Part shown: piece by piece, positions 10,230-16,698 of the stretch
Position numbering within the stretch: the stretch's first letter is position 1
Layout of the letters: every line of letters begins with the position of its first letter
Assembly (NCBI GenBank): GCA_020634235.1
Contig: JACKCB010000001.1
Span: 442,945-506,944, forward strand
Length of the DNA: 64,000 bases
From: Ardenticatenaceae bacterium
GTDB taxonomy: Bacteria > Chloroflexota > Anaerolineae > Promineifilales > Promineifilaceae
Reading direction: 5' to 3'
The notes under the pieces: model-generated
Told to the model about the DNA's origin: nothing
Database searches by the model: none
What the model saw: the letters and a program-made list of their open reading frames with translations, nothing else
Program-made: the position numbers and the translations under genes

Positions 10230-11526
10230 CTAAGGGCGCGTCCCTTCTGACCCTGGCGGTGTGCCCGGCCCCGGCCGGGCGGCAGCCATGGGAATGTCCC
10301 GCCGCAGCAGGAGAAGGGCCAGGCCAAAGGTCACGAACATCATCATGGCCCCAATGAGGTACGGTGCGCGGGGGCTGATGTAATCGAACGCCAGGCCGGC
10401 CCACACCGGTCCCAGGATGAAGCCCAGGCTGTTGGCCGACTGGATCAGCCCCAGCAGTTGGCCGCGGCTCTTGTCAGTGCCAAAGCGGGTGATCAGCGAT
10501 TGCAGGCTGGGCTGGTTGATGCCCTGGCTGAAAGCCACCGGGGCGATGAACAGCGTTACCAGCCACGGCGTAGTGGACAGGCCCACCCCCAGCAGGCCGA
10601 TGAACAGCCCCACCTGCCCAAAGAGGATCAGCCGCTGCTCGCCAAAGCGCTGCACCAGCGGCTTGATAAGCACCAACTGGGTGAGCACGCTGACCATGCC
10701 CACGAAGGCCAGGATCCCCCCCACGTTGCGGGCCACCAGGCTGTCCGGCAGGTCGCTGAAGAGGGTGGCCTGGGCGTACAGGGCAAAGGTGCTTTGCAGG
10801 GCGGAGAAAGCAAGCACAATGCTGGCGCTCAGGCCCAGGATGAGCAGGATGGTACGGTTGCGCAGGAACTCCCGGCCGGGGCTGCGCCGGCTGCGGGCGG
10901 CCATGGCCTCCTCTCGCTTCTCCGGCGGCAGCGATTCCTCCAGCAGAATCATCGTCAGCAGCACGCTGAGGCTGGTGATGACCGCCGCCCCCACAAACGG
11001 GGCCACCAGGTTGTATTGGGCCAGGATGCCGCCAAACGCCGGGCCAAAGATGAAGCCCAGGCCAAAGGCAGCGCTGATAAGCCCCAGCGCCTGGGCCCGC
11101 GTTTGCGGCGTGCTGATGTCGCTCATGTAGGCCTGGGCGGTGCTGATGTTGCCGCCGGTGAGGCCATCCAGGATGCGGGCCACGTAGAGCATGAACAGCC
11201 CGCCGGAAATGCCCAGCGTCAGGCCGGCCCTGTCCAGGACAGCCCCAATGGGCAGGGCAAAGATGAACAGCACAAAGGAGAAGACGGTGCCGATCTGGCT
11301 GATGATGAGCACCGGCCGGCGGCCGACGCGGTCCGACAGGCGGCCCAGCCAGGGGGCGGCCAGGAACTGCGCCGCGAAGTAGGCGGCGTTGAGCAGCGTG
11401 GCCTGGAAGGCGGACGCGCCGAAGTTGCCCTCGGCGTAGATGGGCAGGATGGGCAGGATAACGCCTGCCCCCAGGATGTTGGTGAAGACGGTGACGAATA
11501 TCGGGATGACGCGACGACGATCCATG
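10230..11526 (-). CDS. MFS transporter (Tet/TCR-like, 12 TM)
   Basis: N-terminus MDRRRVIPIFVTVFTNILGAGVILPILP and loop GRLSDRVGRRPVL (MFS motif A); start ambiguous (alternative at 11603). Confidence 0.8.
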
Positions 11527-11818
11527 AAGCTTCTCAGGGAAATGAGGGTGGCCGGGGCGGTAGATGCCCGCTGTTCGCGTTGAACCGGCGGATTGTAGGA
11601 CATCCGTGCGAAAATGCAAACGGCACAAACAGCGGGACGGGTAGGGGCGGGACAGGCGGGAGACCCCGCTTGCCCTGAAGAACCAAATCATCTCCCGCCT
11701 GTCTCGCCCGCATTGGGCCGCCACCGCCGTCATCGGGCGAGACGGCGCGGAGCAGACGCCGTCCGGTATGGCCAACGCCAGCCCGCGCCGTCCCGCCCAT
11801 ACCTGAGATTGTGGGTCT

Positions 11819-14800
11819 TCAGACGCCGGTGAGCCGCTGCAAGATGGCGCTGATGATGTAGGCATCAATGTGATCCAGCCCGTCGGTCAGGGCTTCCAGA
11901 TCTGTGTCACCAGCCACGATACGCTCAACAACGGGAGGCAGATTGCGCCAATCATTGGTTTGGGCCAGTTGCGGCAGGATTTGTGCGACGGCGGCCTGGG
12001 CTTCCTGGTTGCCTTGCGCCGCAGCGACCACGGCCCGGATGAAATCGGGTGCCCATGAAGGGAGTTGGTGGGCTACCCCGGCGTAGGCGGCGTAGCTTTC
12101 CTGCTCCTGGCGGCGCCAGCGGGCGGCGGCGGCGCTGTCTCCCTGCGCCGCGGCAATTTTGGCCAGGACTTGGTAGGTGTTCCACGGCTCGGCGGAGAGG
12201 TCGAGGGTTTCCTTGATGGCCAGGGCGCGGCGGGCGTAGTCTTCCGCCTCGGCCAGCCGCGCTTGCGCCAGGTAAAGGCTGGCCAGGTTGGAATAGTCAA
12301 TGGCTAGTTCTTTTGGATTGCCAATCTGCTCATCAATCTCAATTTCCCGCAAATACCAGCGCTCGGCGTCGGCCGGGCGGCCATCCCCCTCCGCCACCAT
12401 CGCCAGTTGGTTGCAGGTTTGCGCCACCCCTGGCCAATCCTGATGGCGTTCCTTAATCTGCAAGCTCTCCCGGTAACAGCGCTCCGCCTCCGCCCACTGC
12501 CGGGCCTTCTGCGCCACCATCCCCAACTGGTGCCAGGCCACCGCCTCCATGCGCGGCTCATCCAGGGCACGGAAGGTGTCCAGCGCCGCCAGGTAGCGCT
12601 CCTGCGCCGCCGCCAGGTCGCCGCGCTGCAGCGCCAGCGTCCCCAGTTGGCCGAGCGCCACACCTATTTGTCGCTGATTGTCGGAGTCACGGGATATTGT
12701 TACGCTAGATTCATAGGCTCGCTGCGCCTCATCAAACTGGCCAAACCCTGCCAGACAGTCACCCAAATCGGCAAAAACAACGCCGAGCATTTCCTTGGCG
12801 CTTTGGTTCGTCTGGCCCAGGCGCTCAAAGCCGGCGATGGCTTTCCGGTGCCAGGCAATCGCCTGCTGCGGCCGGCCCTGGGCCGCCAGGCAGCGGCCCA
12901 GCCTCGCTTGCGTCATGGCCATGTCATAGTCAAGTTCCACTTGATTGTCGTAGGCGGCGCCGGCCGCCAGCCGCGCCAGCAGCGCCCGGAACAACGCCTC
13001 CGCCTGCTGCGCCTGCCCCTGCTGCAGCAGGGTCTCCCCCTGCCGGCTTTGCAGCAAAAACTCTGCCTTGGTGATGGCCGCTGACCGTTCGCCCGCTTCG
13101 CCGCCCGCCAACGGCGCGGCCACCCGCGCCAGCAGCGCATCCCGCTCCCGCCAGCGGCCAAAAACGTCCAGGAATTCGGCGATGCTGTCGGCAAATTCAA
13201 CGGCGGCGGCCACCTCGCCCGCCGCCAGGGCCAGGTCCACCCCGCGGCGCAGGTTGGGCATCTCCCGCACCGCAATCGCCCGCGCCTGGTGGGGCGTTTG
13301 TGTGTCGGCCTGGTACAGGTAGTTCGCTAATCGATAATACCGTTTCCAATACTTCTCTTGCAGGGCGGCCCGCCGCTCAGCGCTCAACTGGGTGGACAGA
13401 TAAGGCAGCAGTGTCGGGTGAAAATGCAAGAACGGCGGCTTCACGCCGGGCAGTGACTCTACGCGCAGCAGCGCCGCCTGTTCCAACTCGCGGCGCGCCA
13501 CGCGCCACAAAGCCGCGTCCATCTCGGTAATCGCCAGCATGTCGTCTTCCATGCACAAGCCCTGGAACACCGCCAAATCGGGCAGCGCCTGCCGCGTCGC
13601 CTCCCCCAGCCGCCGCAGCGAGAACGCCAGCGACACGGCCAGGCTCTCGTTGCGTTCCTGCGCCTGGCCGGTTACAAAGCCGGGCAGCAGTTCCTCAAAG
13701 CGCGCCGTCAGCTCGGCCGGCGTGTACTCCTTCAGGCGGGGCAGCACCAGGTTCAGGCTCAGCGGGTGGCCGCCCAGGTGGGCCATCAGGTCCACCAATT
13801 CCTGGCGGGGGATGGTCGCCCGGTCAATGCTGTGCGCATCCAGCACCGCGGCGGCCAGGGCCAGGGCGTCATCCGTGGCCAGCCCGCCCAGTTGGATGTG
13901 GCGGCAGCGCTGCCCCGGCGCAAAGCGCCCGTCGGGGAAGCTGGTGTCGCGGGTGGTGATGAGCAGGCGAGGGCGGGGCGATGCGGGGGTGAGAGGGTGA
14001 GAGGGTGAGGGGGTGTTGGTCCAGTGGTGGACGGCGGCCAGCAGTTCGGCTAATTCCTCGGCGGGCATGAGGGCGTCGCGGCCAAGGAGGGATTCGAAGT
14101 TGTCCAGGATGACCAGGGCCGGCCTCTCGGCCAGCAGTTGGCCCACGCGGGCCACCAGGTCGCCATCGCCGTGGATCACCCAATCGGGGTCGCCGCTGAC
14201 CGCCTGCCCCACCCAGGAGCAGATCTGGGCCAGCGAACCGCCCTGCTCCACGGAGACAAACGCGGCGCCGCCAGGGAAGCGGCCGGTACGGGTGAACCAG
14301 CGCCCCGCTTCGGCGGCCAGGGCGGTCTTGCCCAGCCCGCCAAAGCCATGCAGCACCACCATGGGGGCAGCGGCCAAAGCCCGTTCCAGGGCCAGCATCT
14401 CCTTCGAGCGGCCGTGGAAGCCGTACTGGGGGACAGCCGGCAGCGCCCCCGGCAAAGCGGTCTGGGGATTGGCGGCTGGCGATGGCGCAGGGCGAGCAGC
14501 CGGCGCGGGCCGGGCAGCCGCGCGATCACCCCTGGGAAAAATCACGGGGTCCAGCGCCTGCTGGTACAGGGCCGGCAAAAACCAATCGCGCAGTTGAATC
14601 GTTTCTTCGATCAGGACGTCATCCTTGTTGTGGCGGGTAATCGTGTGCCGATTCTCATCAGCCAACAGGGCGCGCCGGCCGCGATCTACGGCCTGGCCAA
14701 CGGTCAGCCCCCTGGCCAGGCCGCCATAGAACGCGCTTACGAATTTGCGCGCGGCCACCACCAGCACCGAATAGTTCATCGCCAGGACACTGCCCACGCC

Positions 14801-15712: not shown

Positions 15713-15857
15713 GAAACGCTCCCGAAGCATCTTGGAAAAAGATAGCTCCTCAGGTGCCGTTCAGGATTAAAGCCATTGACCCTGGTGTGCAAACTGGTTA
15801 CGGGTGCAAATTGCTCCAACCTCCGGACCGGCTGAATGGCTGACGAATAGAGGACAA

Positions 15858-16553
15858 TTAGCGTATGGCCTGCCCAACTTTTTGTGCCGGAATCTGCGAA
15901 GTACCCAACATGATCGGTCCCAGGCGCGTTTGTACCTCGGCACCTAATCTTAATTGCAGCCAGAAGCCATTGCTGCCGGCCGGGGCATCGGCGACCAGGA
16001 AAGTCGTCAGATCGCCGATTAGAGGATGGTCCGCTTGATGGGTAAATCGCCACTCAACCTGGCGCTGCCCCTGGCCAAACGCCTGAACAACCGGCAAGGC
16101 ATACGGGTAAGGGATGTCTACACCGGCCTCGCCCAGTTTCGCATCAATCGCATTGACGAACTTCAGCTGCGGGGTGAGTTTCAGACTGAATGTTCCCTCG
16201 CGCACACTGGTAATGCGCTCCGGAAACAACGTATAGGCGGTGATATCACCCCGGCCACGCAATGGCGTCATCGCGGCGTGCAGCCGGACTTCTTGATAAC
16301 GGTCGTTCTTCTGAGGCGGCGGATAAAGCGTACAGCTAAGCCGCACCAGGGTGTAATCACGGTTGCCAACGGGCTTGTTCCATACTTCTCCGGTCTGGCC
16401 GGTCAGGGCATCGGCCGCCCGCCACCATCTGATCTTGCCGAGGGCAATGCGGGCAGTCCCCTCGCCCCCTCTAAAGGTTTCACCAAGCTGCTCAAGTTCA
16501 CCCTCCCATAGGATCTCTTCTGGCTCAAGATGTGTGGGCACGTCTATGTTCAT
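15858..16553 (-). CDS. hypothetical protein (231 aa), candidate partner of the CHAT-STAND protein
   Basis: Long ORF with a strong GGAGG SD 6 nt before ATG at 16553. Same strand as the CHAT gene and 127-145 bp upstream of it (145 bp to the CHAT start adopted at 15712, 127 bp to the ORF-track ATG at 15730). No family signature recognisable by eye. Confidence 0.5.
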   Translation of the reverse strand: MNIDVPTHLEPEEILWEGELEQLGETFRGGEGTARIALGKIRWWRAADALTGQTGEVWNKPVGNRDYTLVRLSCTLYPPPQKNDRYQEVRLHAAMTPLRGRGDITAYTLFPERITSVREGTFSLKLTPQLKFVNAIDAKLGEAGVDIPYPYALPVVQAFGQGQRQVEWRFTHQADHPLIGDLTTFLVADAPAGSNGFWLQLRLGAEVQTRLGPIMLGTSQIPAQKVGQAIR

Positions 16554-16698
16554 AATTACCTCCCCATGCTCAATATCTGGCTGGTTGGAAACCGCGCTGG
16601 CGGTATGGGGCATTGTAACATGAACCCCCGGCCGGGGAAATGAGGTTTGTCACCCGGGGCAGGGATGATACTCATGGGTGGCGCCCCCGGCCGGGGCA

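Follow-up and report, generated by a model that had tools for sequence, protein, structure and literature searches.

A motif-free stretch in an Ardenticatenaceae genome coincides with a strain-variable locus encoding a CHAT-STAND protein

The motif gap and the strain-variable segment between the ADH and MFS genes

The DNA analysed here is a 64-kb stretch of contig JACKCB010000001.1 from an Ardenticatenaceae bacterium (the window), in which a GC-rich 10-bp palindrome, CCCGGCCGGG, recurs at high density. The longest interval lacking this motif coincides with a locus, placed between the genes for a Zn-dependent alcohol dehydrogenase (ADH) and an MFS transporter, that encodes a CHAT-NB-ARC-TPR protein of the STAND type and a 231-aa partner protein (Table 1), and that differs in gene content between otherwise near-identical strains. 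We assign a probability of about 0.85 to the reading that the motif-free stretch is a passive historical signature of an imported accessory defence cassette and not a functional element. The evidence comprises the gap itself, synteny, strain polymorphism, peptide statistics, domain content, a predicted fold and gene linkage, from which we infer below in what order and direction the changes took place, how recombination proceeded, how the motif arises and how the defence would work.

Exact counting gave 95 copies of CCCGGCCGGG in the window compared with 0.67 expected from dinucleotide-preserving shuffles, a density of about 1.5–1.6 copies per kb. The copies span the window (for example at 276, 708 and 63272) and lie dispersed within genes, with counts of 41/21/17 for the three reading frames. 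The repeated unit is a discrete 10-mer whose flanks are unconserved except for a weak C/G at -1 and +1. The gap measures 5,756 bp from start to start of its bounding copies (10871 to 16627) and holds 5,746 bases without the motif, in comparison with a mean spacing of 670 bp and a second-longest gap of 2,190 bp (50870 to 53060). These values bear out an earlier note on this DNA, made from the letters alone, which had seen no exact copy between about 10878 and about 16630, a background of one copy per 0.7 kb and no other gap above 2.2 kb. The Poisson probability of zero copies, which that note had put at about 3e-4, is 1.9e-4 for a single pre-specified interval of this length; correction for choosing the longest among 94 gaps raises it to 0.012 (Monte Carlo) or 0.018 (Bonferroni), and a gamma distribution fitted to the other gaps gives P = 0.002. 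In the other 58 kb every span of 5,746 nt contains at least five copies (mean 9.2, variance 7.2). The scatter outside the gap is thus not over-dispersed, indicating that zero copies is a true outlier. One-mismatch variants of the motif number only two in the gap (15177 and 15975), which equals the random expectation, whereas they are approximately 4-fold enriched elsewhere, and positions 10881–15176 lack even these. The gap also contains neither of the sub-words CCCGGCCG and CCCGGCCGG, which outside it reach 2.0–2.4 per kb.

To compare strains, conspecific metagenome contigs were recovered through exact protein look-ups. The 339-aa ADH (P0121) was found as a 100% identical protein on four contigs, and look-ups with the STAND protein and with a 332-aa reading of the ADH returned no match. 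Seven metagenome contigs show that exactly positions 11620–16703 are replaced or polymorphic, with flanks that are 99.5–99.8% identical, and together with the window they define three alleles of this segment. The window carries allele A, which also occurs in two further samples (L048 and L049); contig L048 comprises the ADH end, the partner gene and the start of the CHAT region (16727 to 15602, 99.9% identity). For allele B, contig L044 follows the window without an indel for 10,994 bp (27697 to 16704; 99.84% identity) and diverges at the last ADH codons. Beyond the break it carries a 789-aa Eco57I/BsuBI-PstI-type restriction-modification (RM) gene followed by a different CHAT domain. Contigs L045, L046 and L047 share this breakpoint to the base and resemble L044 beyond it. 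Allele B is complete on contig L002, which contains, in order, the ADH end, the RM gene, a region encoding the different CHAT domain (CHAT') and an EAD7 domain, the NB-ARC-TPR region, the spacer and the start of the MFS gene, and which from its position 4701 on matches the window from 14453 to 11273 at 97.9%. At the protein level the sensor parts of alleles A and B are 97% identical and the CHAT domains 60%, with the EAD7 domain being extra in B. The difference is an effector-domain swap inside the STAND gene, with the breakpoint at window position 14454 (L002:4700) in a Pro/Ala-rich linker. The locus displays, at strain resolution, the rebuilding of an immune gene in which the STAND sensor body is kept and the protease domain and companion gene are exchanged. 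Allele C is represented by contig L001, which is 99.78% identical to the window over 6,247 bp (11619 to 5373) and breaks 19 nt upstream of the MFS ATG. Its variable part (L001:1-1899) encodes an N-terminally truncated IS701-like transposase (NF041680 family), and the STAND gene is absent. A 305-bp stretch of allele C is 78% identical to the 3' end of the allele-B RM gene and its downstream region, indicating that the slot once held a diverged RM allele. Motif scarcity is common to the slot as a whole, as the pooled non-redundant DNA of the three alleles holds 3 copies in 11.4 kb compared with 18 expected (P = 1.8e-5).

Traces of recombination extend beyond the segment. Within the MFS gene, positions 11436–11577 (142 bp, codons ~9–56) differ from L002 at 26 sites, compared with one difference in 163 bp of neighbouring MFS DNA, and L001 is the same as the window here. 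The patch resembles a tract brought in by recombination from a more distantly related lineage. We also considered whether the 3' half of the STAND gene is closer between strains than its flanks are, as after a recent transfer between diverged backbones; this was rejected, as the L002 differences are patchy, indicating mosaic recombination. The cassette ends show no flanking direct repeats or att sites and the window contains no tRNA. Among the cassette genes of the window's allele there is no mobility domain or integrase, the IS701-like transposase being confined to allele C.

Synteny in relatives gives a second, independent view of the slot. When species-representative genomes were scanned with the MFS protein, the matches were confined to distant metagenome-assembled genomes (MAGs) of Chloroflexota/Anaerolineae at no more than 67% identity, with no conspecific or congeneric genome among them, and the collections searched held no ADH homologue between 73% and 100% identity. 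In one of these relatives, the Anaerolineae MAG H16_161 (L004), the ADH gene (8983–9975) and the MFS gene (10001–11293) are adjacent on the same strand, less than 75 bp apart and with no insert, which is the arrangement that the earlier note had proposed to look for. The gene order in L004 is that of the window (ADH, MFS, Mrr-like, methyltransferase, His-phosphatase, M20 peptidase), with identities of 67% for the ADH and 58% for the MFS protein.

The motif has also left an imprint on proteins, and this provides an informative compositional test for the cassette. Within coding DNA, CCCGGCCGGG can specify only PGR[GEDAV], xPAG or [PAST]RPG. In window genes outside the gap, 79 of 83 such compatible tetrapeptides (~95%) are encoded by the exact motif, and host proteins contain 82 of them compared with 14.3 expected after residue shuffling, a 5.8-fold enrichment. 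This enrichment together with the nearly full occupancy indicates that the motif has reshaped host proteins, as uptake sequences and the cyanobacterial palindrome HIP1 are known to do. In contrast, the STAND protein contains no compatible tetrapeptide in 1,303 aa, with 0.96 expected from its own composition and approximately 6 at the host rate, and the allele-B STAND protein likewise contains none (0.98 expected). The partner has a single compatible tetrapeptide, APAG, which remains unconverted in the form GCCGGCCGGG and is one of only 4 unoccupied sites among the 84 compatible ones across the called genes of the window. By this evidence the cassette looks like DNA never exposed to the motif-making process. 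Single genes lacking the motif are found elsewhere in the window as well: the genes for an M20 peptidase (6723–8096, 457 aa) and a methylmalonyl-CoA mutase (48340–50031, 563 aa) have neither motif copies nor compatible tetrapeptides. The former is a core gene, 99.8% identical in L001 and syntenic in L004 and a further relative (L003), and absence of the motif over 1.7 kb or less is thus not diagnostic.

The motif is specific to this lineage among the DNA compared. It does not occur at density in any of 38 related loci (MFS identity at most 67%) and is absent at density from all relatives at or below 73% amino acid identity. Among strains differing by 0.2–0.5% no gain or loss of the motif was seen, with all motif positions conserved. 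One-nucleotide variants fall mostly at the outermost position (36), followed by the second (22) and third (4), with none at inner positions. No DNA methyltransferase or Vsr domain turned up in those window genes that were scanned, and a literature search with the motif string found no paper on CCCGGCCGGG, returning only primers and unrelated uses.

History of the slot and competing explanations

The observations can be arranged into a plausible order of events. The host lineage (Chloroflexota, Anaerolineae-like) would have filled its own DNA with CCCGGCCGGG, the copies being formed at their sites through nucleotide substitutions in the manner of cyanobacterial HIP1, and DNA entering from outside the lineage after this accumulation would be motif-naive, the naive block here being about 11620–16626. 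From an ancestral state with adjacent ADH and MFS genes, the slot may then have gained an RM gene as well as a STAND gene accompanied by the hairpin spacer. Later, in the lineage of the window, a partner-CHAT-STAND module would have arrived and recombined with the resident STAND gene at the Pro/Ala linker (14454), taking the place of the RM gene and of the CHAT'-EAD7 part. Turnover most likely proceeds through homologous recombination, with the core flanks and the conserved body of the STAND gene as anchors, given that integrase, att site and tRNA are absent; the occurrence of the module as a unit elsewhere, the divergent patches in the flank and the lack of repeats likewise fit homologous recombination better than site-specific integration. 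A phage or plasmid vehicle finds no support, as relatives of the partner are lacking from the phage, plasmid and IMG/VR collections.

This history modifies the earlier proposal that a two-gene module was inserted between MFS and ADH after motif accumulation. Insertion at this site agrees with both synteny and strain polymorphism, but the locus is a layered hotspot and not a single two-gene insertion. The edges of the gap are not those of the insert either, as the left border lies at approximately 11620 and not at 10880, and the 740 bp of MFS sequence within the gap represent an ordinary chance gap. The CHAT-NB-ARC-TPR gene and the partner gene do lie within the gap as described, whereas the spacer begins at 11604 and not at 11527. 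Finally, the acquisition is recent relative to motif accumulation but cannot be placed in time, since the one relative with adjacent ADH and MFS genes is distant and free of the motif, and the insertion therefore cannot be dated against the expansion of the motif.

Composition was examined using Karlin B with resampling, GC content at third codon positions (GC3) and a tetranucleotide signature with motif copies masked, the comparison that the earlier note had suggested. The outcome is mixed. The partner has a GC3 of 0.63 (about -2.7 standard deviations) and the CHAT part 0.71, mild deviations from the 0.78 ± 0.06 of other genes, and the codon usage of the partner is moderately atypical (z 4.3), inside the range of the window. 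The NB-ARC-TPR part (0.81) is typical, and the codon usage of the STAND gene is the most typical of 48 called genes (Karlin B 0.153, z 2.5). The tetranucleotide correlation of 11620–16703 with the rest of the window is 0.885, within the 0.82–0.93 range of 5-kb windows. The allele-B STAND gene is host-like throughout (GC3 0.82–0.84) and the RM gene, with a GC3 of 0.52, is clearly foreign. The segment is layered, with a younger layer specific to allele A (partner gene and CHAT part) and an older one present in both A and B (NB-ARC-TPR part and hairpin spacer). That the older layer is host-like yet motif-free could mean either that the donor was a relative of similar composition without the motif or that motif creation had ceased before its arrival.

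Several points weigh against an imported cassette. Generic composition tests do not flag the STAND gene as foreign, and one has to suppose either that it has long been resident or that its donor was very close to the host in composition. The search for a donor was negative, the best homologues outside the species being 71% (STAND) and 83% (partner) identical. Mobility genes, att sites and tRNA are all lacking in the window's allele. The variable DNA is motif-poor and not motif-free, with two copies in the allele-A intergenic region and one in the allele-B RM gene, and motif-free housekeeping genes of 450–560 aa, the M20 peptidase and methylmalonyl-CoA mutase genes, also occur in the window. 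The sole relative with ADH-MFS adjacency is distant (58–67% amino acid identity) and without the motif, and all comparison sequences are metagenome contigs.

Of the other explanations, the one that survives best, though we consider it unlikely, is that motif creation was a past burst that has now ended. Lack of the motif would then mean only arrival after the burst, and the older layer may be long resident. The host-like GC3 and codon usage of this layer, which are normally slow to acquire, and the absence of motif gain or loss between strains 0.2–0.5% apart would fit such a burst, but a compositionally similar donor accounts equally well for the codon usage. In addition, the 4-fold enrichment of one-mismatch variants in host DNA, at outer positions as in HIP1, fits an ongoing equilibrium of creation and decay (PMC4390886), and the polymorphism of the younger layer among 99.8%-identical strains indicates that at least that part is recent. 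It is improbable that the genes are old residents refractory to the motif, excluded by protein constraint or by selection against the palindrome (e.g. in the expression of a toxic operon). The fully host-like codon usage and tetranucleotides of the STAND gene could be read in this way, highly conserved genes such as that of methylmalonyl-CoA mutase likewise lack the motif, and for HIP1 such selection is acknowledged in some genes (PMC3025956). However, a 1,303-aa protein of TPR repeats and Pro/Ala-rich linkers, from a family that diverges to 45–60% identity, is not under strong constraint, and the APAG site of the partner is unconverted although one synonymous change would suffice. The locus is moreover absent at the syntenic site of the relative and is present, absent or swapped among near-identical strains.

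An assembly artefact, with foreign reads wrongly placed between ADH and MFS to give a chimeric MAG or contig, is very improbable. The comparison material is itself metagenomic and the middle of allele A (14454–15601) is covered by the window alone, but independent contigs from other samples span both junctions (L048, 16727 to 15602 at 99.9%; L002, 14453 to 11273), and full-length partner and CHAT-NB-ARC-TPR modules exist elsewhere. Least credible is chance, by which the gap would be the extreme of a random Poisson-like scatter and its overlap with the CHAT-STAND locus meaningless: the corrected P is only about 0.012–0.018, and DNA that is demonstrably core also has gaps as long as 2.2 kb and several genes without the motif, but the gap coincides with an interval set independently by strain polymorphism and the synteny break, every other 5.7-kb span has at least five copies with a variance below the mean, near-motifs and compatible peptides are also at the random baseline in the gap, and the other alleles are motif-poor too. 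Restriction avoidance was rejected as a cause of the gap. In 5 kb of random DNA a site of 10 bp would turn up only about 0.05 times, and nearly all foreign DNA would lack CCCGGCCGGG in any case.

Genes and other features of the locus

The coordinates of the locus and its flanks are collected in Table 1.

Table 1. Features of the ADH-MFS slot and its flanks (window positions).
Feature	Positions	Strand	Remarks
Motif-free stretch	10881..16626		zero exact CCCGGCCGGG; bounding copies 10871-10880 and 16627-16636
Strain-variable (accessory) segment between ADH and MFS	11620..16703		homology ends 11619/11620 (L001), 16703/16704 (L002, L044-L047)
MFS transporter, left core flank	10230..11603	-	Pfam MFS_1 6e-54; motif copies 10270, 10871
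STAND-MFS spacer	11604..11818	-	hairpins 11645-11709, 11735-11798; outer inverted repeat 11640-11653 / 11790-11803
STAND gene, CHAT-NB-ARC-TPR, 1303 aa	11819..15730	-	Pfam CHAT 4.8e-24, NB-ARC 8e-9, TPR_12 3e-29
NB-ARC-TPR sensor part, alleles A and B, older layer	11819..14453	-	97-100% nt identity to L002; GC3 0.81; motif-free
CHAT part of STAND, allele-A-specific, younger layer	14454..15730	-	60% aa, 70% nt identity to allele B; GC3 0.71
231-aa partner gene	15858..16553	-	haemolysin/leukocidin-like beta-sandwich/pre-stem fold, predicted
Near-motif GCCGGCCGGG in partner	15975..15984		encodes APAG; one synonymous change short of motif
ADH-partner intergenic region, allele-A-specific	16554..16698		motif copies 16627-16636, 16686-16695
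Zn-dependent alcohol dehydrogenase (ADH), right core flank	16699..17718	-	Pfam ADH_N and ADH_zinc_N; 5 motif copies

The STAND protein combines an N-terminal CHAT domain, an NB-ARC P-loop module and a C-terminal TPR array. Its caspase-like dyad is intact, with the His in HFDGHG (aa 239) and the Cys in NACQS (aa 287), and a Walker A motif GGLGKT is present at aa 464. The true start of the gene is probably the second Met, at 15712. The ATG of the partner gene is preceded by a GGAGG Shine-Dalgarno sequence, and the start is common to homologues. The MFS gene encodes an identical protein on L001 and is syntenic in L003 and L004, and gene calling on a conspecific contig places its start at the same codon (11603).

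The spacer between the STAND and MFS genes is highly structured, with an RNA folding energy of -130.7 kcal/mol (z -5.6). Alleles A and B both have it, with 99.5% identity to L002, and C lacks it, which makes it part of the cassette. Positions 11640–11806 have 68% similarity to an intergenic stretch of a Promineofilaceae contig (L042:11041-11189), and an Rfam comparison gave no credible family, only sub-threshold miRNA noise. The spacer could be a REP/MITE-like element or a bidirectional terminator. At the other end of the cassette, both motif copies of the ADH-partner intergenic region sit inside the longer palindrome-like CCCCGGCCGGGGG (16625–16639 and 16684–16697), with a terminator-like match at 16639–16625. 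Their presence is unexpected in DNA that is otherwise naive for the motif, and this 145-bp region may be the ancestral terminator region of the ADH gene.

Adjoining the MFS gene, positions 9500–10327 (minus strand) encode a protein with Mrr_cat / NA-iREase1 (NACHT-associated inactive restriction endonuclease) domains. The gene is syntenic in L003 and L004 and bears the motif, placing it in the core flank and not in the cassette. At 38539–43179 lies an operon for a sugar ABC transporter with a LacI regulator, which has a lowered GC content (0.57), few motif copies and atypical codon usage (z 3.4–6.3). It may have been acquired too, at an earlier time, or it may be under constraints of a different kind. 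The remaining genes of the window belong to ordinary metabolism, including peptidases, amylases, a sugar ABC transporter, phosphoglucomutase and methylmalonyl-CoA mutase.

The STAND family is large and mostly from Chloroflexota, with 870 matches at E <= 1e-20. PADLOC returned only partial domain matches on the cassette (TPR, SAVED_CHAT, BovA) and assigned no system. For the partner there was no match in Pfam, NCBIfam, PADLOC or PDB sequences; none of 56 family members had a Pfam match, and a profile search of PDB sequences gave nothing relevant. An HMMER profile search yielded 433 cluster representatives of the partner family (clustered at 50% identity), mostly of 220–250 aa. The partner is predicted to adopt the cap beta-sandwich and pre-stem fold of the leukocidin/alpha-haemolysin type, with matches to LukA (12.2), LukD (11.9), Vibrio cytolysin (11.1), alpha-haemolysin (10.3), CytK (9.2) and gamma-haemolysin (9.1). 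Foldseek agrees with this assignment (E about 1e-7), at modest TM-scores of 0.35–0.43. By inspection only, the N-terminus MNIDVPTHLEPEEILWEGELEQ is acidic and without a hydrophobic segment. Identification of the partner as a gasdermin was rejected, as the fold search gives haemolysin/leukocidin toxins and no gasdermin is among the matches listed. Membership in Pepco or EACC1 was likewise rejected, the partner having 231 aa, compared with about 117 aa for Pepco and about 13 kDa for EACC1, and no Pfam match.

In five of five contexts examined (the window, L041, L050, L051 and L052/L053) the partner gene adjoins a CHAT gene, the most divergent being an actinobacterial member with about 22% identity beside an 855-aa CHAT protein, and in L041, L050 and L051 the partner and a CHAT-STAND gene occur together in unrelated surroundings.

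Putative function and comparison with known systems

By analogy with characterized systems, the cassette most likely encodes a protease-gated abortive-infection system in which the partner is the probable protease-activated effector. A phage cue would cause the TPR/NB-ARC sensor to oligomerise; the CHAT protease would then become active and cleave the neighbouring partner into a membrane-damaging form. We tentatively put forward, at somewhat less than even odds for the two parts together, that the partner founds a family, not described before, of effectors that reside in the cytoplasm, have a haemolysin/leukocidin fold and are switched on by neighbouring CHAT proteases, and that CCCGGCCGGG is a near-saturated HIP-type palindrome outside cyanobacteria. 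If true, the partner family would join gasdermin, Pepco and EACC1 as one more pore-forming executioner under protease control, tying the classic secreted beta-barrel toxins to bacterial cell-suicide immunity. Absence of CCCGGCCGGG would become a usable residence-time clock for accessory DNA in the lineage, and the naive cassette a natural experiment on motif creation.

The behaviour of CCCGGCCGGG closely resembles that of HIP1. In Synechococcus elongatus PCC 7942, HIP1-poor genes flag recently acquired DNA (xenologs), and HIP1 is thought to arise in situ by mutation (Delaye et al. 2011, PMC3025956). One-nucleotide variants of HIP are biased toward the outermost positions (Elhai 2015, PMC4390886). 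Both motifs are lineage-specific GC-rich palindromes, vastly over-represented and present at about 1–3 copies per kb inside genes and in all frames, both have outward-biased one-nucleotide variants, and for both, scarcity relative to gene length marks xenologous genes or islands. They differ in that CCCGGCCGGG is a 10-mer of Chloroflexota and HIP1 is GCGATCGC of Cyanobacteria. HIP1 has also been proposed as an uptake sequence (bioRxiv 10.64898/2026.06.24.733823). The criterion of Delaye et al. combines few HIP1 copies with odd codon usage (PMC3025956). Applied here, the combined criterion would miss the STAND gene, whose codon usage is normal, and strain comparison and synteny are needed in addition. 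As a missing motif is already established for HIP1 as a mark of foreign DNA, our finding is confirmatory rather than surprising. More novel are two by-products, namely the HIP-like motif and the partner with a predicted haemolysin fold that accompanies CHAT proteases. Motif absence revealed accessory DNA where GC content, codon usage and tetranucleotides failed for most of the cassette, and the approach is useful for lineages known only from MAGs without close reference genomes.

The DNA uptake sequence (DUS) of Neisseria and the uptake signal sequence (USS) of Pasteurellaceae are depleted in horizontally acquired islands. Like CCCGGCCGGG, these are 9–12-mers that occur at about one per kb in the species' own gene pool and reshape coding sequence, with foreign islands lacking them. 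Unlike CCCGGCCGGG, they are not palindromes and act via a known uptake receptor.

Defence hotspots flanked by core genes, with turnover of cassettes, are known from studies of E. coli and Pseudomonas. The present slot resembles them in being a fixed site between housekeeping genes at which immune genes (STAND, RM, IS) vary among near-identical strains with no integrase. It differs in that it is defined by three alleles only, all from metagenome contigs, and in that recombination cuts inside a gene, swapping the protease and keeping the sensor.

The partner is a lead toward a further class of protease-activated pore-forming effectors. It shares 5–13% sequence identity with the leukocidin/alpha-haemolysin/NetB family, with no sequence-profile match, is about 60 residues shorter, probably without the rim domain, and is coupled to a protease gene. 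By inspection of its N-terminus it has no evident signal peptide and would therefore act from inside the cell. Bacterial gasdermins occur in systems with CHAT or caspase-like proteases (Johnson et al., bioRxiv 10.1101/2021.06.07.447441). These systems and the cassette have in common a small (about 230–260 aa) non-enzymatic protein beside a CHAT protease fused to a repeat/NTPase sensor; in gasdermin systems cleavage releases the pore-former, and by analogy the same logic would be expected for the cassette. In the Pepco-Avs4 and EACC1-caspase-Avs12 systems, latent pore-formers are freed by a single cleavage (Evans et al. 2025, PMC12642450). The partner has a different predicted fold from Pepco and EACC1 and lies outside the ten protease-associated families of that study (PMC12642450), but the arrangement is the same, with the effector gene directly upstream of a gene for a protease-STAND (Avs) sensor, and the EACC1 example comes from Ktedonobacter, which also belongs to the Chloroflexota.

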